From an uncultured Planctomycetales bacterium (GTDB lineage: Bacteria; Omnitrophota; Gorgyraeia; Zapsychrales; CAYRXT01): DNA of 64,000 nucleotides. Below the pieces are notes generated by a model. The model saw nothing but the letters and a program-made list of their open reading frames with translations, had not been told where the DNA came from and did no database searches. Positions 22,357 to 41,777 of the stretch are shown here, in pieces; the first letter of the stretch is position 1, and the number at the start of each line of letters is the position of its first letter. The translations under genes and the position numbers were made by a program. Where the stretch lies: NCBI GenBank assembly GCA_964428315.1, contig CAYRXT010000012.1, positions 562 to 64,561 on the forward strand, written 5' to 3'.

Positions 22357-22399
22357 TCAGGGGTAAGGGGTAAGGGATTCGTGGCAGGAGATAAGAAAA

Positions 22400-22454
22400 G
22401 GGGGGACAGGCTGCTTTGAAGATAAGACAGAAGCAGCCTGTCCCCCCTTTTTTG
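22400..22454 (+). terminator. Rho-independent terminator
   Basis: GGGGGGACAGGCTGCTT..AAGCAGCCTGTCCCCCC is a 16-17 bp stem, followed by TTTTTTG. Confidence 0.75.
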
Positions 22455-22473
22455 ATTATCCATACCTCAGGGC

Positions 22474-25950: not shown

Positions 25951-26696
25951 CAAGACAGAAGGCCGTGATTGTCGTGCCATGTTTTAACGAGGCCAAACGC
26001 CTTCCGGTTGCAACATTCCGCAGATTCATGGGCATGAACAGGCATATCCGGTTTATATTCGTGGATGACGGGAGCACGGATGGAACGCTTTCGGTCCTCA
26101 GGGAACTCGCCGCGGACTCCCCGGACCGGGCCCTTGCGCTGCATCTCAAGCGGAATGCCGGCAAGGCCGAGGCGGTGCGGCAGGGGATGCTCAGGGCCGT
26201 GGAATACGGTCCGGATATTGTCGGATTCTGGGACGCGGACCTGGCCACGCCCCTGGAGGCTGTCCCTGAGCTGTTGGCTGTTTTCGCAAAACGGCCCATG
26301 GTCGAATGGATATTCGGCGCGAGGGTCCAGCTTCTCGGACGCAATATCCGGCGCCGGTCAATGAGGCATTACTCGGGACGAATTTTCGCCACCCTGGCCT
26401 CGCTGACGCTGGGGCTTGCCGTCTACGATACCCAGTGCGGCGCCAAGCTTTTCCGCTGCGACAATCTTTTGAAAGCCGTCATCCGCGAAAAATTCCGCAC
26501 GCGTTGGATCTTCGACGTGGAGCTGATCGCCCGCATGCGCAAGACATTCCGCGACGTCTTTGCGCCCCAGGAGGTCATCTTTGAGTATCCCTTGACGGAA
26601 TGGATCGATATCGAAGGTTCGAAAGTGAAGGCGCTGGATTTTCTCAGGGCCTTCGGCGATTTGCTGAAGATATGGATTTATCTTTTGAAGCGGTAA
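25947..26696 (+). CDS. GT2 polyprenyl-phosphate glycosyltransferase (Dpm1/ArnC-like)
   Basis: ATGA overlap with the GT-C gene. AVIVVPCFNEAKRL....FIFVDDGSTDGT...DADLATP...YDTQCGAKLF are the canonical DXD/ED motifs of dolichol-/undecaprenyl-phosphate sugar synthases. The ORF-track 25860 start is an over-extension. Confidence 0.8.
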   Translation: MTRQKAVIVVPCFNEAKRLPVATFRRFMGMNRHIRFIFVDDGSTDGTLSVLRELAADSPDRALALHLKRNAGKAEAVRQGMLRAVEYGPDIVGFWDADLATPLEAVPELLAVFAKRPMVEWIFGARVQLLGRNIRRRSMRHYSGRIFATLASLTLGLAVYDTQCGAKLFRCDNLLKAVIREKFRTRWIFDVELIARMRKTFRDVFAPQEVIFEYPLTEWIDIEGSKVKALDFLRAFGDLLKIWIYLLKR

Positions 26697-27900
26697 GCTC
26701 ACTGAGCAGTGATCTGTACAAGGCGTGCGTCTCCCTGGCGACGTGGGCCCAGCTGAAGGACTTGAGGACGCGCCGGCGGCCGGCCTTGCCCATCCGGCGG
26801 CGCAGGGCCTTATCGTCGACGAGCTGGTTGATGGCCCGGGCCAGGTCCTTTTCAAAGGCCTTCGCGGATTCGGCCTTCATCTGGGCTGAGTCGCCGTTTT
26901 TCACCGGCACCAGAATGCCGGTCTCCCCGTCCGCCACGGCCTCTTTGATGCCTCCCACCGCGCTGGCCACCACGGGCGTTTCGCAAGCCATGGCCTCGAG
27001 GTTGATGATCCCGAAAGGCTCGTAGACAGACGGACAGCAGAAGACCGCGGCGTGGGAATACAGCGCGACCTTAGCCTGCAGGTCGATGATATTTTTGATC
27101 CAGATGATGCCGCCTCGGGCCTTTTCGACCGCCGCCACATGCTCTTCCATCTCGAGCAGGATCTGGGGGGTGTCGGCGGCGGAGGCGCAAAAGACGACCT
27201 GTATCTCCTCCTTAAGATAAGGGATCGCGTTCAAAAGATGGAAGATGCCTTTTTGCCGGGTGATCCGACCGACAAAGAGAACATAGGGGCGCGAAAGGTC
27301 AATGCCGAGGGATTCGATTGCCCGGGGCGACCGGGTCGGCGTATATTCTTTCGGGTCGATGCCGTTGTGAATGATATGGATTTTTTCCGGCGAGACTTGG
27401 AAATGGCCCAGGATGTCTTGACGGGTTTCCTCTGATACGGCCACGACGGCGTCGGCCATCTCAAGGGCGGTCTTTTCAACCCAGCAGCTGAAATCGTATC
27501 CTCCGCCGAGCTGTTCCCGTTTCCACGGCCGAAGCGGTTCCAGGGAATGCGTGGTGACGACCAGGGGAATAGAATAATTGAGTTTGGCCAGGATGCCGGC
27601 GAAATGGGTGTACCAGGTGTGGACGTGCACGATATCGGCGTCGATCCGGCTCATGTTGAATGCGTTATTTCTCTGGACGGCGTCGAACACGCTCTTCAAG
27701 GGTTTGGGAGCCGAGCCCTTGCGTCTGGAGGGCGGAAATCCCCTCACCTTAAGGGTTTTTTCGTGAACCTTCTGTTTGCCGAAACAGCGGACCTCGACCC
27801 TGCAGAGCTTGGCCAGCTCGCGGCTGAGATAAGACACGTGAATGCCAGCCCCGCCGTAGATATGGGGCGGATACTCGTTGGATAAAAGAAGGACTTTCAT
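26644..27900 (-). CDS. GT4 family glycosyltransferase (glycogen-synthase/MshA-like retaining GT-B)
   Basis: MKVLLLSNEYPPHIYGGAGIHV is the GT4 N-terminal signature. The EX7E-type C-terminal region (PSVYEPFGIINLEAMACETPVVASAVGG) is present. The 3' end overlaps the convergent GT2 by ~50 nt. Confidence 0.85.
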   Translation of the reverse strand: MKVLLLSNEYPPHIYGGAGIHVSYLSRELAKLCRVEVRCFGKQKVHEKTLKVRGFPPSRRKGSAPKPLKSVFDAVQRNNAFNMSRIDADIVHVHTWYTHFAGILAKLNYSIPLVVTTHSLEPLRPWKREQLGGGYDFSCWVEKTALEMADAVVAVSEETRQDILGHFQVSPEKIHIIHNGIDPKEYTPTRSPRAIESLGIDLSRPYVLFVGRITRQKGIFHLLNAIPYLKEEIQVVFCASAADTPQILLEMEEHVAAVEKARGGIIWIKNIIDLQAKVALYSHAAVFCCPSVYEPFGIINLEAMACETPVVASAVGGIKEAVADGETGILVPVKNGDSAQMKAESAKAFEKDLARAINQLVDDKALRRRMGKAGRRRVLKSFSWAHVARETHALYRSLLSELTASKDKSISSANRRRP

Positions 27901-28916: not shown

Positions 28917-30761
28917 TTGAGAAAACAGACACTTGAAAGAACCGTTATCCTTTGCTTAAGCCTCCTTGTCTCCTATCTGGTCGGTGTGGCGTGGCGCATG
29001 GAGGTGAACTATTTCGACAGTTACAGCATTCTCATCAACGCACGCATTTTGGCCCACGGGACGAACCTGCCGTATGCCTGGATCCGCCCGCCGCTTCTGC
29101 CGGCCTTGCTGATACCTTTCTTTCTGATTGAGAACATGACGGGCCTGCCGGAATTTGGCTATACGGCCGCGCATCTTTTCATGGCGGGGATATTCGCGGT
29201 TTTTGTCTATATGGCCAAGGAGTTCTTTGTTCTCTTCCTGGAGAGGCCCTGGCCGTGGATCACCGCGGGGTTGTTGTCGCTCAATCCTGTCCTCGTTCAC
29301 CAGGCTCCCTTTATTAAAGAAGATCTGCTGGCGGCGTTTCTGGCAGCGGCGGCCTTGTTCTCTTTCCTGCGCTGGAAACAAAAAGGGGGGGGCGTCCGTC
29401 TTTGCGCGACCAGCTCCTTGATCGCGTTTTCTCTCTTGGCCCGTTATAACATCGCGCCGGTCCTTTTTTTCCTGGTCGTTGTCTTTACACTTATCCCGCG
29501 GCAGAGGCCTCTGCCCTGGAGAGAGCTCTGGCAGGTTCTCGTCTTTCTCATCATTATCCCGGCGGGGATTTTCGCCGGGACGCAGGTTTTCATTTATGCG
29601 GCACTGGATATCGCGCCGCTTCACCGGGCGCCGGCGCAGGCCTGGACCGACCTCAGGCATTTTTTCATGACGACGCGGACGTCCGAATCCCCCCTTGAGA
29701 ATTTCGGGTTTCTTTTCTATTCGGTTTCCTGGCCGCTGTGCCTCAGCGCGTTATACGGGGCCGTTGTGGCCCTGCGGCACAAGGCGCGCGGGGCGGTCTT
29801 CTGCGGGTTGTGGTTCCTCGCCGTTTTCTTGCTTCAAACATATTTTTTCGGCCATAAGGAGGCCAGGTACCTGATGCCCGGGCTCATACCGTTGTATTTT
29901 TTTGCGGTATTGGGTTTGAAATCCTTCATGGAGATAATGGGGCAAAAGAATGTCCGCGGCTGTTTTCGCGCGGTGTTCTTTATCGCGCTGTTGATGATTC
30001 CCCTTAACAATGCCCTGCGCGAGTGCGCGAAATTCCTCGACCCATTCTACGCGAAACCGGCCGCGGAAAATGTCAGCCTCATGGCCCGGCAGGTCGCCGG
30101 GCCCGGGAAAGCTGTCTACTGGGTGGGGGAAGGGTATCCTCTTGTCCCCGCTGATTATGCTTTCCTGCCTGCCGACGATTACGGTTACATTTATCATCTG
30201 GATACCAATGCCCTCATGTATTATCTCGGAGAGAAGGTCCAGGGGTTCAGGGGGGCGTTCTTTTTTCCGTCATCCCTGGAGGCGCAGGCGCGGCCAAGGG
30301 TGTCAGGACAGAGCCTGAAACGGCACGGGATATTTGTACGGGGCGTCAAAAATTACGTGGACGATGGCGATGTCCTGGTGGTGAACATCGAGCCGCGGCC
30401 CTACACGGCGGCAACCCGGCCCAAGACCCTCGATCCGCTTTATATCCAGAAGGTCCGCCGTCTTTCATTCAGTCTGTCGAAAGGGCCGGTTGGCCGGTCT
30501 CTGGTATTTGCCTCTGATGCCGGCGGAGGGGCGGTCTTTCTGTCAAAAAAAAGAAACGGTTTCCAGCTTCGGGTCGAAGGACTGCCGGAAGGCTATTATG
30601 AGCCTTATCTGCGTGTGCCCGGAAGTAAGAATGATCCGAGCTTCCGTCCGTTTTCCGTTAAAGACGGCGTGGGACAGGCCTTTTTCGCGCATCCACTTCC
30701 CGGGGACGTGGGACGCGTCATCCTCCTCACGTACGATCTCGTCCGGGCGTATTTTCCTTAA
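28917..30761 (+). CDS. Large polytopic membrane protein, probable GT-C-fold glycosyltransferase (PMT_2/ArnT-like)
   Basis: 614 aa with more than 10 TM helices in the N-terminal two-thirds and a C-terminal soluble domain. Early loop motif NYFDSY. Architecture as for the 24505 gene. Confidence 0.55.
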   Translation: MRKQTLERTVILCLSLLVSYLVGVAWRMEVNYFDSYSILINARILAHGTNLPYAWIRPPLLPALLIPFFLIENMTGLPEFGYTAAHLFMAGIFAVFVYMAKEFFVLFLERPWPWITAGLLSLNPVLVHQAPFIKEDLLAAFLAAAALFSFLRWKQKGGGVRLCATSSLIAFSLLARYNIAPVLFFLVVVFTLIPRQRPLPWRELWQVLVFLIIIPAGIFAGTQVFIYAALDIAPLHRAPAQAWTDLRHFFMTTRTSESPLENFGFLFYSVSWPLCLSALYGAVVALRHKARGAVFCGLWFLAVFLLQTYFFGHKEARYLMPGLIPLYFFAVLGLKSFMEIMGQKNVRGCFRAVFFIALLMIPLNNALRECAKFLDPFYAKPAAENVSLMARQVAGPGKAVYWVGEGYPLVPADYAFLPADDYGYIYHLDTNALMYYLGEKVQGFRGAFFFPSSLEAQARPRVSGQSLKRHGIFVRGVKNYVDDGDVLVVNIEPRPYTAATRPKTLDPLYIQKVRRLSFSLSKGPVGRSLVFASDAGGGAVFLSKKRNGFQLRVEGLPEGYYEPYLRVPGSKNDPSFRPFSVKDGVGQAFFAHPLPGDVGRVILLTYDLVRAYFP

Positions 30762-31086
30762 GCCTCGTTAATAGAATCTGTGGGTGCCTAAATAGCCAAA
30801 CATGGCTTAAGTCATTGATAATAAACAACTTGCCAATAAATAAACCTCTGAATTTTTTGAGTTCAGATTCAAGAATAGCCGTAGGGGCCGTGGGATCTGT
30901 GGGAAACCTTCGAGAGTTTCGGTTTTCCACAGATTCCATGGCCCATTTTAGTCGATTATTACCCACAGATTCTGAGAAAGAGCCTTCCTTAAATATGTTT
31001 CGCACCGGCTCTTTTCCGTTTAACGCATTCCGGATCCCGCCGACGATTCCGGCAACGGTATCTTTGCGGGGTATGAGGGAACCTTA

Positions 31087-32646
31087 TTACGGCACGGGTG
31101 GTTTTTTTACGGGGGGATTCTTTACTTTGGGCAGGACACAGAAGATCCCGTAAAGGATAAAGGGAATCAAATAGAGGACTGCCATCTTGACCGCCACTAC
31201 GGGATCGAAGGATTTGTATTTTTGCAGGACTTGCGCGGGAAGGGCCTGCGCCGTGTGTGTGGCCCGGGTCAGGAGGTAGATGACATAAAGCGGTCCCGCC
31301 TTGAAAACCGCCTTGGCCATTTCCGCGGGATGGAAGAGAAGGGTTTTCCAGATCTCGGCCTGATAGGTGTTGTTCGACCAGTCATGAACGCCGAAGTACT
31401 GTTCGGTCAGGGTCATGGTCAGGTTAGTGGCGTTGCCTTCGAAAGCGAGCATTGACATCATCGGCAGGATCGCCAGCGTAATCATCACCCGCCGCAGCAC
31501 AGGTTTACTTTCCACGGATTGAAGAAGGGCGCAGAAAGGATAGACCACAAGGGGGATGGCGGCCGCGAGGATATACCGGTAACCGTACCATCCGCCCTGA
31601 GTCCGGTACATAATAATGCCGTAAAGATTGAATACAAGCGGAATAAGAAGGACCAAAAGATATCTTTTAAGGGGAGAGCGCGGTATAAAGAAAAGATAGC
31701 CAAGCCCGATAAGAAGGAAAGGCGCCGTGAAGACAAGCCCCCAGTCTATGCCGATGAGGATGTGCGCAAGACGCCGGATATAGAACAGGGGTTCTTTGAT
31801 CATGTAAAACTGGGAGATCAGTCTGGAAGCGTATCCTTCGGTATAAGTATACATTGAAGGCCAGATTTTGAAGACCAAGATTAGGGTGAAGGCCACTGCG
31901 AAGACGGCGCCCAGACCCTGTAGGACCATGCCGCGGTTCCGCCCGCGGTTTTTCTGGATCAGGAGGACCACGGGCCAGAAGACGGCAAGGGCGATGTTAT
32001 TGAGCCTCACCAGGACCGTCAGGCCGCTGAGGATGCCCACAAGGACCGCGTAGCCTGATCCGATTCCGGAAGACACCCGGTTTTTCTTGATCTCGGCGAA
32101 GTTTTTAAGAAGAAGGAACACGAAAACGCATTGTATGAAGAATTCATAAATATGGGAGAACAGCGGACGCCTGAAAGCAAAAAGCGGCAGGCCCTGTGCA
32201 AGGACCATCAGGATGACGCACAGCGCGGCATGCTTTCGGGAGAAGTGGAAACCGAGGCCTTCAAAGAGCAGGAAACACCCCAGCCAGAAATAGACCACGG
32301 AGGATACGATGAACCCGAATTCGGTGAAACTGAGCATGGTATTTTTTTTCGTCCGCTCTTCAAAGATGCCGGGATTCCCGATCCGGTCGAACTGGGAAAA
32401 AGCCAGGACAAAGGGCGAGGCCATGAGGCCGGCCCCGATGGAGCATTCCGGACCGTCGGCGCGGTAGCCTTTCTCGGCGAAGGCCATCTCTTTGTCGTAT
32501 GAAGGAAATTCCCCGAAGACCAGGGCCGTGGAATGCGCCAGATAATCGTAATCGTCGTGGGTGTACATCAGGCCGTTGTACTGAAGCTTGTACGGCCGAA
32601 GGAGGAGGAAGAGACAAAGAAAAAAGAAGAGGGTGATTCTTTTCAC
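31087..32646 (-). CDS. Polytopic membrane protein, possible GT-C-fold glycosyltransferase
   Basis: 519 aa and multi-TM. The first-loop acidic motif YTHDDYDY is GT-C like. The start codon is uncertain: GTG 32646 or an internal ATG. Confidence 0.5.
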   Translation of the reverse strand: MKRITLFFFLCLFLLLRPYKLQYNGLMYTHDDYDYLAHSTALVFGEFPSYDKEMAFAEKGYRADGPECSIGAGLMASPFVLAFSQFDRIGNPGIFEERTKKNTMLSFTEFGFIVSSVVYFWLGCFLLFEGLGFHFSRKHAALCVILMVLAQGLPLFAFRRPLFSHIYEFFIQCVFVFLLLKNFAEIKKNRVSSGIGSGYAVLVGILSGLTVLVRLNNIALAVFWPVVLLIQKNRGRNRGMVLQGLGAVFAVAFTLILVFKIWPSMYTYTEGYASRLISQFYMIKEPLFYIRRLAHILIGIDWGLVFTAPFLLIGLGYLFFIPRSPLKRYLLVLLIPLVFNLYGIIMYRTQGGWYGYRYILAAAIPLVVYPFCALLQSVESKPVLRRVMITLAILPMMSMLAFEGNATNLTMTLTEQYFGVHDWSNNTYQAEIWKTLLFHPAEMAKAVFKAGPLYVIYLLTRATHTAQALPAQVLQKYKSFDPVVAVKMAVLYLIPFILYGIFCVLPKVKNPPVKKPPVP

Positions 32647-32995
32647 TTAAACCGTCATGATCCTGTTTGTCCGGTGTTTGGTGACCATCATAACATAAAT
32701 TAAGCTTGAGTTGGGCGAAAATATTTAGGTCTGTGATTTGAGTCTGTCTTTGAGTCTGTCATTTAAGCCCTATATTTCCGTGATGGTTCAAAGAGCGCTC
32801 CCGTACTTCCCGTCCTGGATGTCCAGGCATCCCGGCGGAGTGGGCAGGTCCCGAAAACGTAATGGGTTCCTTGTTATACAATAAACGCCCCTTCAATCTT
32901 CACATGCAATTTTCTCTTCTCCCTCAATTTTCCCTTGCCTTTCTTTGACTAAAGAGATAACATACATTCTCGTTTTGGATTATGAATCAAGGAGG

Positions 32996-35494
32996 ATGAA
33001 AATGCCTGACCTCGATAGATTATTTCGTATCCGTCCCCGCATTGTGCTTGTCATGTGGTTCCTCTCGTTATGCGCTGTTTGTTTGAAGGCGGAAGCCTTT
33101 GAAAACATTGAATATATCGGCCAGTTTTCGCCGTCATTATCCAGTCCCGTTGATATCGCCCTCCTGGATAACCAGGAGATTATCATCCTTGATGAACAAG
33201 ACGCGAGGATCATCTTCCTGGATCCCCAGGGGCAGACAATGCGCATTATCGGGGCCCGGGGATCCCGAACGGGGCAGTTCCGCAGGCCCCGCTCATTAGC
33301 CGTTTCACCGCGGGGCACGATCATTGTGGCCGATACCGGCAACGACAGGATCCAGGTCTTCGATACCAAGGGTGATTTCCTTTTCGCTTTCGGGAACAGC
33401 GGTTCCCGCAGCGGTGAATTCAGCGGGCCTGCGGGAGTGGCCGTGGACCCGGACGGCTACATCTATGTTGCGGATTATGGCAACAAGAGGATTCAAAGTT
33501 TCACGCCCCGCGGGGTCTTTATCAGCGCCTTGGCGACCGATGAGCGGCCGCTTGATATTGAACTGGACTTGCAGAAAAATATTTATGTCCTGCAGCCGGA
33601 AACCGGCGTCATCGCGGTCTATTCTCCCGACGGGGAAAAGAAGGAGGCCGTATCTTTTAAGACGAAAGGCCGTAATTTCGTCAAAAGGGGCAGGGCCATC
33701 GCCGTCGACCGGCGCGGGGATCTTTACATGACCGAGAGGGGCGAGCATAGCGTCAAAAAGACGGACGGGCAGAACCTTCTTCTGTCTTTCGGCTCACAGG
33801 GAGAAGGCCGGGGGCAGTTCGAAGATCCCGCCGGCCTGGCCGTGGACAAGACGGACAGGATTTTTGTGGCCGACGCCGCCAACCAACGCATTCAGGTGTT
33901 CAAGGTCAGCGGGACGCAAAAGAAGCCCTTAGAGACCGGAGCCGCGCTGGAAATGCCCGTCATTGAATTCGCTTCGGTCATTCCTTCGGGTGAGGGGATT
34001 GCCGACCTCTTCTATCAACCGGGAAAAGGTCTCTTTGCCTTGTCGGATGAGCGCGACGCCGTCTTAAGCTTTGATGCCGACCGCAAGGTCTTCGGCCGGG
34101 AGGGCCGTGAATCGGGAGAATTCCGCGGTCCGGAGGCCTTATTTGTGGATCACGAGGGAAGACTATTTGTCGCGGACAGCCAAAACCAGCGTGTCCAGAT
34201 TTTGTCTCCGGAAGGCCGTCCTCTTCATGCGTTCGGGACGGGCGGAGACCTGAATGGCCAGTTCCGCTATCCCAGAGGGATAGCGGTCAATTCGAGAGAA
34301 AGGATTTATGTCGCGGACACCTTAAACGACAGGATCCAGATTTTCAGCAAAGACGGTATTTTTCTTAAAGCCTTCGGCGATGAACTGCTACCCGGTGGAG
34401 AAAAGACCCTTCAGTCGCCCGAAGCCCTGGCCGTCGATTCGCGTGACCGGATTTATGCCGTGGATACCGAACATCACCAAATATCGGTGTTTGACGAGCT
34501 CGGTACGAGGCTGATGGTCTTGGGCAAACGCGGGGGAGGCCCGGGAGAATTCAATCAGCCGGTGGACGTGGCGGTGGACGAAAAGGACTTCCTTTATGTC
34601 GCCGACCGGGGGAACAACCGGGTCCAGGTTTTTGACCCGCGGGGACGCTGGCTGTTCGCTTTCGGTGCCTATGGCCAGGGGCCGAGCTTTTTCCCGTCCC
34701 TGTCGGGGGTTGAAGCCGCTTCTGGCAAGATCTATGTAGCCAATGAAGGAATGGAACAGATCAAGGTCTTTGATTTTGAACGGGAAAAGTTCGGATTAAC
34801 CGGTTCGACGGATCAAGAGGTTGTGCCCCTGGGGAAAAAGACGGAAGGGGATGCGAACGAGACAACGGCTGCAGTTCACGAGAAGAAAGTCCCCGAAAAG
34901 GATGTCCCCAGTACAGAGGATCCAGTTCAGGAAGAGAAAGCATCCGTAGCCGTAGAGCCCGAGGTTAAAGAAAAGGCCCGGCGGCAATCCGTTCAGTCAG
35001 AAAATGAAACGGAAAAAGCAACGGAAAAAGTGTCAGAAAAGAAAGCGGAAAAAGTAATGGAAGAAGAAGCGGCAAACGAAGCGGAAAAAGAAACGGACGC
35101 GTCTCTGGCCGCGGAAGACGATATCCGAAGAGTGCTGGATGAAACCCGTGTTTATGTCACCAAGACTTTTTACCTCCCGCCAAGCGGTTCCCCTCCCGCG
35201 GATGCCATAATGCAGAAAGTCCGGCTCCTTACGACGAACGAAGCCCTGAAGACCCTGGCCGAGAAGACGGGCATGCCCATAGAGAAAGTGAAAAACTACG
35301 CTAAGGTCGAACATGAGGAAATGGACGATGGCGGCACGTTCAAGCTGACCTTGAGCGTTCCCAAGGATCTGAGGGAGAAAGAGCACAGATCTTCCGGACC
35401 CGAGAAGAGAAGGAAGGCCGGGAATTCGCCGCAGGAAGACGATGTCCTGTCCCAAGACGGTCCGCCGTCCGTCGGAACGCGGCTGACCCCTTAG
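32996..35494 (+). CDS. NHL-repeat beta-propeller protein with a C-terminal Glu/Lys-rich low-complexity region
   Basis: RBS AGGAGG. Start is ATG 32996 or 33002. Signal peptide. Multiple NHL repeats (GQFRRPRSLAVSPRGTIIVADTGNDRIQVFD, GEFSGPAGVAVDPDGYIYVADYGNKRIQSF, and so on, at least 10 copies). Followed by an E/K/A-rich segment and a C-terminal domain. Confidence 0.8.
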   Translation: MKMPDLDRLFRIRPRIVLVMWFLSLCAVCLKAEAFENIEYIGQFSPSLSSPVDIALLDNQEIIILDEQDARIIFLDPQGQTMRIIGARGSRTGQFRRPRSLAVSPRGTIIVADTGNDRIQVFDTKGDFLFAFGNSGSRSGEFSGPAGVAVDPDGYIYVADYGNKRIQSFTPRGVFISALATDERPLDIELDLQKNIYVLQPETGVIAVYSPDGEKKEAVSFKTKGRNFVKRGRAIAVDRRGDLYMTERGEHSVKKTDGQNLLLSFGSQGEGRGQFEDPAGLAVDKTDRIFVADAANQRIQVFKVSGTQKKPLETGAALEMPVIEFASVIPSGEGIADLFYQPGKGLFALSDERDAVLSFDADRKVFGREGRESGEFRGPEALFVDHEGRLFVADSQNQRVQILSPEGRPLHAFGTGGDLNGQFRYPRGIAVNSRERIYVADTLNDRIQIFSKDGIFLKAFGDELLPGGEKTLQSPEALAVDSRDRIYAVDTEHHQISVFDELGTRLMVLGKRGGGPGEFNQPVDVAVDEKDFLYVADRGNNRVQVFDPRGRWLFAFGAYGQGPSFFPSLSGVEAASGKIYVANEGMEQIKVFDFEREKFGLTGSTDQEVVPLGKKTEGDANETTAAVHEKKVPEKDVPSTEDPVQEEKASVAVEPEVKEKARRQSVQSENETEKATEKVSEKKAEKVMEEEAANEAEKETDASLAAEDDIRRVLDETRVYVTKTFYLPPSGSPPADAIMQKVRLLTTNEALKTLAEKTGMPIEKVKNYAKVEHEEMDDGGTFKLTLSVPKDLREKEHRSSGPEKRRKAGNSPQEDDVLSQDGPPSVGTRLTP

Positions 35495-41709: not shown

Positions 41710-41728
41710 GGGGATTAAAGTAATAAAC

Positions 41729-41777
41729 GGCCCCCTTCCCCTCCGCTTAAAGCGGAGGGGTAGGGGGCCGTTTTTTT
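41729..41777. terminator. Bidirectional rho-independent terminator
   Basis: GGCCCCCTTCCCCTCCGC-TTAA-GCGGAGGGGTAGGGGGCC followed by TTTTTTT. It sits between convergent genes. Confidence 0.75.

Follow-up and report, generated by a model that had tools for sequence, protein, structure and literature searches.

The window analyzed here, meaning the whole 64-kb stretch of DNA, contains a short structured feature between two converging open reading frames (ORFs), one at 28917-30761 on the + strand and the other at 31087-32646 on the - strand. The upstream gene encodes a 614-aa protein and the downstream gene a large protein of 519 aa; both are multi-pass and membrane-like and fall in no Pfam family, and the 614-aa protein is an orphan, with no homologue except itself among 5.8 billion proteins. 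These flanking genes neighbor a GT4 glycosyltransferase gene (26644-27900) and a gene for an NHL-repeat protein (32945-35494). GC content was 0.395 across 30800-30999 versus ~0.55 in the surroundings; with the converging ORFs confirmed, this bears out the preliminary description of an AT-rich convergent intergenic region. No tRNA or tmRNA was found.

The same description had reported four copies of a short motif in this region, and all four were recovered with the positions and sequences it had given: GAATCTGTGGGTG (30774-30786), GGGATCTGTGGGAAA (30893-30907), TTTTCCACAGATTCC (30922-30936), and ACCCACAGATTCTG (30961-30974). The 8-mer CCACAGAT that they share occurs four times in the 64-kb window, every time within 30776-30970, where ~1.5 occurrences would be expected per window; the clustering is therefore far beyond chance. 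A search of the window for the 11-mer CCCACAGATTC with up to 2 mismatches returned nothing comparable outside the feature. Chance copies in an AT-rich background, named beforehand as a possible refutation, are thus excluded by the clustering together with the external homologues described below. The left two CCACAGAT copies lie on the - strand and the right two on the + strand, forming two nested inverted repeats. These had been noted as such, with shorter arms than those found here: the outer arms (30760-30785 and 30961-30986) extend over 26 nt with 81% complementarity, and the inner arms (30885-30908 and 30921-30944) over 24 nt with 88% complementarity around a 12-nt loop. The parts of the feature, as delimited by the comparisons that follow, are these:

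30754-30761, no strand: left target-site duplication TTCCTTAA, 8/8 identical to 30985-30992, directly outside the homology border
30762-30984, - strand: whole element, 223 bp, probably a MITE; sharp homology borders against the L005, L008, L130, and L131 copies
30762-30786, + strand: terminal inverted repeat of IRR type, GCCTCGTTAATAGAATCTGTGGGTG; matches the IRR of L057, a full-length ISL3 element, at 24/24 positions; contains motif copy 1
30787-30884, no strand: AT-rich interior (GC 0.33), with low conservation and no relation to IS interiors
30885-30944, + strand: inner hairpin (arms 30885-30908 and 30921-30944, 12-nt loop); contains motif copies 2 and 3
30960-30984, - strand: IRL-type terminal inverted repeat GGCTCTTTCTCAGAATCTGTGGGTA (- strand reading), 26/26 identical to the IRL of L036, L060, L063, and L099; contains motif copy 4
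30985-30992, no strand: right target-site duplication TTCCTTAA, 8/8 identical to 30754-30761

The element was assigned to the - strand from its IRL-type end, which lies on the right, in agreement with how the transposase gene is oriented in full-length relatives.

Borders, target duplication, and related copies

Relatives were found through a protein query: the translation of a spurious - strand ORF, 30727-31005, was compared with protein databases. It retrieved P0002, P0003, and P0004, a profile of which then retrieved P0006, P0007, and P0008; the ORF worked as a query because gene callers had mis-called the same ORF in other copies. Read as DNA, the public contigs placed related copies in at least four other genomic contexts:

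L005: adjoins an ISAzo13 transposase, an integrase fragment, AbiEii, and ArdA; target duplication 7/8
L008: adjoins an IS1595 transposase fragment; target duplication 7/8
L129/L130: downstream of a DUF676 gene, L129 belonging to a Candidatus Omnitrophica MAG
L131/L132: in a polysaccharide gene cluster; target duplication of L131 TAAAATTA, 8/8

When the window was aligned with copies on other contigs at the DNA level, homology started at 30762 and stopped at 30984, sharply on both sides. The preliminary description of a discrete element of ~200 bp holds as to discreteness, its true size being slightly larger at 223 bp. Full copies in the window, L005, and L008 are each exactly 223 bp long and 78-81% identical, the AT-rich part being 66-72% identical among copies versus 84-100% for the ends. 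Directly outside the borders, a perfect 8-bp TTCCTTAA stands on both flanks, which answers the proposal that target-site duplications be sought. The TAA stop codon of the 614-aa gene (30759-30761) falls within the left duplication. The element was inserted at this stop codon, and since the left copy of the duplication contains the upstream TAA, the protein was left unchanged; the insertion lengthened the convergent intergenic spacer by ~231 bp, and 102 bp separate the element from the stop of the 519-aa gene on the other side (31087-32646, - strand).

The suggestion that the element might exist in multiple copies is likewise borne out, with homologous copies in unrelated contexts and across genomes; the 64-kb window itself holds one, and no second copy was found there. 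A 104-bp derivative occupies L131 4962-5065 (GCA_030638955.1) and also occurs in L132. Here the inner core runs straight into the tip of the IRR, an AT-rich part of ~119 bp being gone between two CCCACAGAT repeats, and the duplication TAAAATTA flanking the L131 copy is perfect; judged by its sequence, this shorter form is what a deletion from one 9-bp CCCACAGAT repeat to the other would produce. Two database proteins, P0002 (53 aa) and P0009 (387 aa), are 100% identical to the - strand translation of the element over 50 and 38 residues, respectively, and then diverge. P0009 is a normal-looking protein of 340 aa whose final ~38 residues are the - strand translation of the element, and its gene appears to read into a copy of it; P0002 represents a partial copy lacking the IRR end. 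The identities suggest that both represent additional partial copies, located in the window's own assembly or in a very close one.

Public data seem to contain few members of the element family, with ~7 sites and 8 matches in a protein library. In this library of 1.84 billion proteins, the profile of the mis-called ORF gave 8 matches at E ≤ 0.001, of which 4 reached E ≤ 1e-10; two weak profile matches, P0010 and P0011, look to be repetitive proteins that have no relation to the element. Plasmid and phage collections contained no meaningful BLASTN match to the element, viral contigs scanned with terminal-repeat and inner-hairpin patterns gave none, and literature matching of the sequence string returned irrelevant primers only.

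The ORFs called over the element are spurious; they include 30727-31005 on the - strand and 30815-31153 on the + strand, along with database entries like P0002-P0008. ORFs across the element matched no Pfam family, and tblastx between copies gave 59-69% identity that was similar in several frames. These data are consistent with the earlier remark that ORF 30815-31153 has no coding character. A real small protein on the - strand was considered and rejected: what it matches are further copies of the element, and several frames are conserved to the same degree.

ISL3-type ends and their transposase partner

To characterize the ends, metagenomes were scanned with the degenerate end pattern GSCTCKTTNNNARAATCTRTGGGT, which gave at least 120 loci. 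An ISL3 transposase adjoins the terminal repeat in 55/120 among the matches listed, and many matches are located at the ends of contigs, as repeats would be. Four loci (L036, L057, L099, and L112) carry both ends, inverted and 1356-1414 bp apart, around an ORF of 413-431 aa that matches PF01610 (DDE_Tnp_ISL3) at 1e-68 to 1e-70 (1.3e-68 quoted); against the NCBIfam model NF033550 (ISL3 family transposase), this ORF scored 273 bits, the cut-off being 180. The full insertion sequence (IS) in L112 is flanked by a target duplication of 7/8. The right end of the window element is identical over 26/26 positions to the IRL of L036 and others and its left end over 24/24 to the IRR of L057; its IRL-type end begins GGCTCTT, an ISL3 hallmark (PMC11448079). 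Outside these ends the likeness stops: in BLAST comparisons with the 120 listed IS-bearing loci, similarity ended after ~25-27 nt, the interior being unrelated, and no part of the interior, the inner hairpin included, was derived from any retrieved IS. No ISL3 transposase was found by tblastn in the 64-kb window.

We read 30762-30984 as a non-autonomous transposable element (MITE) derived from an ISL3-family insertion sequence, with a probability of roughly 0.93. At 223 bp it is short (MITEs being taken as smaller than about 600 bp) and carries terminal inverted repeats at its exact ends, and such features of MITEs and of ISL3 elements as could be checked in the sequence are all present. The preliminary description had left the choice between a MITE-like element and a structured small RNA; the duplication, the copies, and the ISL3 ends uphold the first, and the second found no support.

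Four oriented motif copies beside an AT-rich segment could also be pictured as a fixed chromosomal cluster of protein-binding sites, such as an origin or iteron array, a set of DnaA-box-like sites, or an operator, in DNA that does not move; in our own comparison, TTTTCCACA and TTACCCACA are each one base off the DnaA box TTATCCACA. Yet there is no GC-skew switch anywhere in the window and no replication or partition gene adjacent, and the same 223 bp stand with duplications at unrelated loci and end in matching ISL3 repeats, so that we consider the probability of a fixed cluster close to negligible. A cluster of oriC/DnaA-box type, with its TTATCCACA-like motif, was rejected on the same grounds, the GC skew having no switch and the element being mobile. 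Two other kinds of mobile DNA were also set aside. Tn7-like ends (TGTGGG...CCCACA with a 5-bp duplication) were rejected since GAATC and GATTC are reverse complements within the repeat and not a direct repeat, and a REP/RAYT or IS200/IS605-type palindromic element was rejected on the true terminal repeats, the 8-bp duplication, and the ISL3 partner.

Comparison with the full-length elements also bears on the motif itself. In these, the transposase ORF stops inside the IRR, reading ..ACC CAC AGA TTT TAT TAA (THRFY*), and the IRR of the MITE reads ..ACC CAC AGA TTC TAT TAA on the - strand (again THRFY*). On this evidence CCCACAGATTC forms the inner portion of the terminal repeat of ISL3 elements and, in the IRR, the last transposase codons as well; the outer motif pair therefore marks the true ends of the element. 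The conserved end motif thus doubles as C-terminal codons of the transposase. In L036 the overlap lies at 826-849, where the transposase stop is within the IRR and the repeat core CCCAYAGATTYTAYTRA encodes the C-terminal HRFY*; the same HRFY* overlap occurs at L133 1609-1627, in an annotated ISL3 element of the Caballeronia plasmid pSBC1_4. Since the overlap is kept at ~50% identity between the transposases, end sequence and C-terminus constrain each other.

At least seven other short elements have the same ISL3-type ends and unrelated interiors. They measure 202-413 bp (L022, L025, L040/L053/L109, L105, L110, L111, and L119), with a 1014-bp deletion derivative (L079) in addition, and the duplications of L022, L105, L119, and L079 are 8/8. 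From these sequences, the ISL3 group with such ends appears to have spawned MITEs repeatedly, several of them mutually unrelated and ranging over 104-413 bp. ISL3 elements ending GGCTCTTT...AGAATCTGTGGGT are abundant in environmental metagenomes. Past the right end of the MITE, at a distance of 22 bp, the window has the sequence GGCTCTTTTCC (31007-31017), identical to the first 11 nt of GGCTCTTTTCCAGAATCTGTGGGT, an ISL3 terminal-repeat variant present in L040 and L053; this may be either coincidental or what is left of an older ISL3 end.

By analogy with established ISL3/DDE-transposase biology and PMC11448079, the MITE would have been mobilized in trans. A DDE transposase supplied by a full-length ISL3 copy would bind the inner part of each repeat and cleave at the GGCTC.../...GAGCC termini, and insertion into an AT-rich target through an 8-bp staggered cut, followed by repair of that cut, would leave the 8-bp duplication. 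At this locus the element landed in TTCCTTAA, a site overlapping the stop codon of the 614-aa gene.

The inner hairpin

The arms of the inner hairpin share with the terminal repeats just the core (G)ATCTGTGG(G/A)AAACC; the GGCTCTT tip is missing. Among copies the hairpin is 87-93% identical, set against the 84-100% of the ends and the 66-72% of the AT-rich part. Across five sequences, pairing holds in 95.8% of its cells, with compensatory double changes at two pairs, and RNAalifold recovers both the outer and the inner helix. In the window copy, every mismatch of the inner stem is a G.U on the + strand; among copies, 5/6 independent mismatch events are G.U on the window's + strand, a bias that is suggestive and not significant.

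Such folding would be expected of a dedicated gene for a structured small RNA, transcribed from the + strand with the nested stems as its helices. The predicted fold is indeed very stable, at -88.1 kcal/mol on the + strand (z = -7.2) and -81.1 kcal/mol on the - strand (z = -6.2) relative to shuffles, and the inner helix is present in all copies with the two compensatory pairs and with mismatches that are almost only G.U on the + strand. Good RNA folding is, however, expected of any inverted-repeat transposon, and this element carries a target duplication and transposon ends and lies in unrelated contexts, in both orientations relative to the neighboring genes. The covariation is thin, coming from 3-5 distinct sequences; several reading frames are equally conserved, and the conservation tracks the pattern of the terminal repeats. 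Nor did the window yield an Rfam match at gathering level, the hits at E < 10 being local noise (E = 0.08-4), and one weak promoter-like match stands against 0.7 expected from shuffles. The folding and covariance analysis that had been proposed thus returned a stable fold and two compensatory pairs and lends no support to a dedicated RNA, which we regard as very unlikely.

A bidirectional intrinsic terminator serving the two converging genes, with the inner hairpin as its stem, would suit the location, and AUUUUAG follows the GC-rich 24-bp hairpin on the + strand. The terminator scan nevertheless called none in the element; the U tract is short and missing from other copies, and the hairpin travels with a mobile element, so that termination would be a by-product effect at most. 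The window's real terminators are different, with A and T runs around a tight hairpin (41722-41776 and 22391-22456). We judge this reading extremely unlikely, in keeping with the preliminary view that the region is not a simple terminator. The palindromes at 41722-41776 and 22391-22456 have GC-rich arms of 26-27 nt that are 92-93% complementary and flanked by A/T runs, and they look like ordinary bidirectional intrinsic terminators.

Returning to the hairpin as a part of the MITE, its conservation is about like that of the ends, which suggests that it most likely helps the element propagate, whether as extra transposase-binding sites or as a single-stranded nucleic-acid hairpin. By the same comparison of repeats, the core is a putative transposase-binding module, and its inner copies may be auxiliary sites or a selected hairpin. 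That the hairpin is a functional module of the MITE family, and not filler, is offered tentatively, as a possibility about which we are doubtful. It could supply auxiliary or alternative ends for transposase binding, into which the 104-bp form in L131 would fit, or it could be a strand-specific structure of RNA or single-stranded DNA that is brought to the 3' ends of host genes. A different ISL3-type MITE, L111, has internal TGTGGAAAA and TTTTCCACAG motifs similar to the inner core. The nesting of a putative binding core within the element is a small oddity relevant to how ISL3 transposase-DNA complexes assemble.

Known systems and side observations

Small intergenic MITEs with inverted repeats, often co-transcribed and forming stable RNA hairpins, include Correia/NEMIS, ERIC, and RUP, whose transposase partners are of other kinds or unknown and whose duplications are mostly 2-bp TA. 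The window element, in contrast, has a clear partner family (ISL3) and an 8-bp duplication. With ISL3-family insertion sequences (PF01610/NF033550) it shares repeats starting GGCTCTT, the 8-bp duplication, AT-rich targets, and ends identical to those of the full-length L036, L057, L099, and L112; it differs from them in being 223 bp long, in lacking a transposase gene, and in having the terminal ~25-27 nt alone in common.

ISL3 elements with GGCTCTTCG repeats and 8-nt direct repeats have been described, as has a 187-nt MITE mobilized by ISL3 in Microcystis aeruginosa PCC 7806 (PMC11448079), and MaeMITE families are listed alongside ISL3 elements (PMC2779907). Like the window element, the Microcystis MITE is short and noncoding, has imperfect terminal repeats that match ISL3 together with 8-nt direct repeats, and combines a predicted stem-loop with spurious ORFs overlapping the repeats. 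The two differ in sequence (GGCTCTTCG... there versus GGCTCTTTCTCAGAATCTGTGGGT here) and in hosts, relatives of the window element being found in Candidatus Omnitrophica MAGs and environmental metagenomes. They differ further in the conserved inner hairpin of the window element, which repeats the core of the terminal repeat, and in abundance: Microcystis families reach hundreds of copies, whereas the window element appears to be low-copy. ISL3-derived MITEs were thus already known, and the window element adds one with a conserved, nested, core-bearing hairpin. Reading it in this way settles the annotation of the AT-rich structured block, as mobile DNA and not as a regulatory RNA, an origin, or a terminator.

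A scan of genome contigs for three spaced copies of the core met unrelated CACAGAT repeat arrays only. Dense, hairpin-forming CACAGAT/ATCTGTG arrays (example unit, ATCTGTGAAATCTGTGGGAG...CTCCCACAGAT) were seen at L003 480-1620 (Oscillibacter MAG), L002 4680-4960, and L004 4820-5260 (Bacteroidota MAG). What they share with the ISL3 ends is just a core of ~9 nt imposed by the search pattern, and a link is unproven. The arrays in L003 stand on both sides of a GxxExxY (TIGR04256) gene and those in L004 between ispH-like and xerD-like genes, while those in L002 lie within a 497-aa ORF resembling an M16 peptidase, where they are translated in frame (PQISQITQISG..., KSVKSVESVG).
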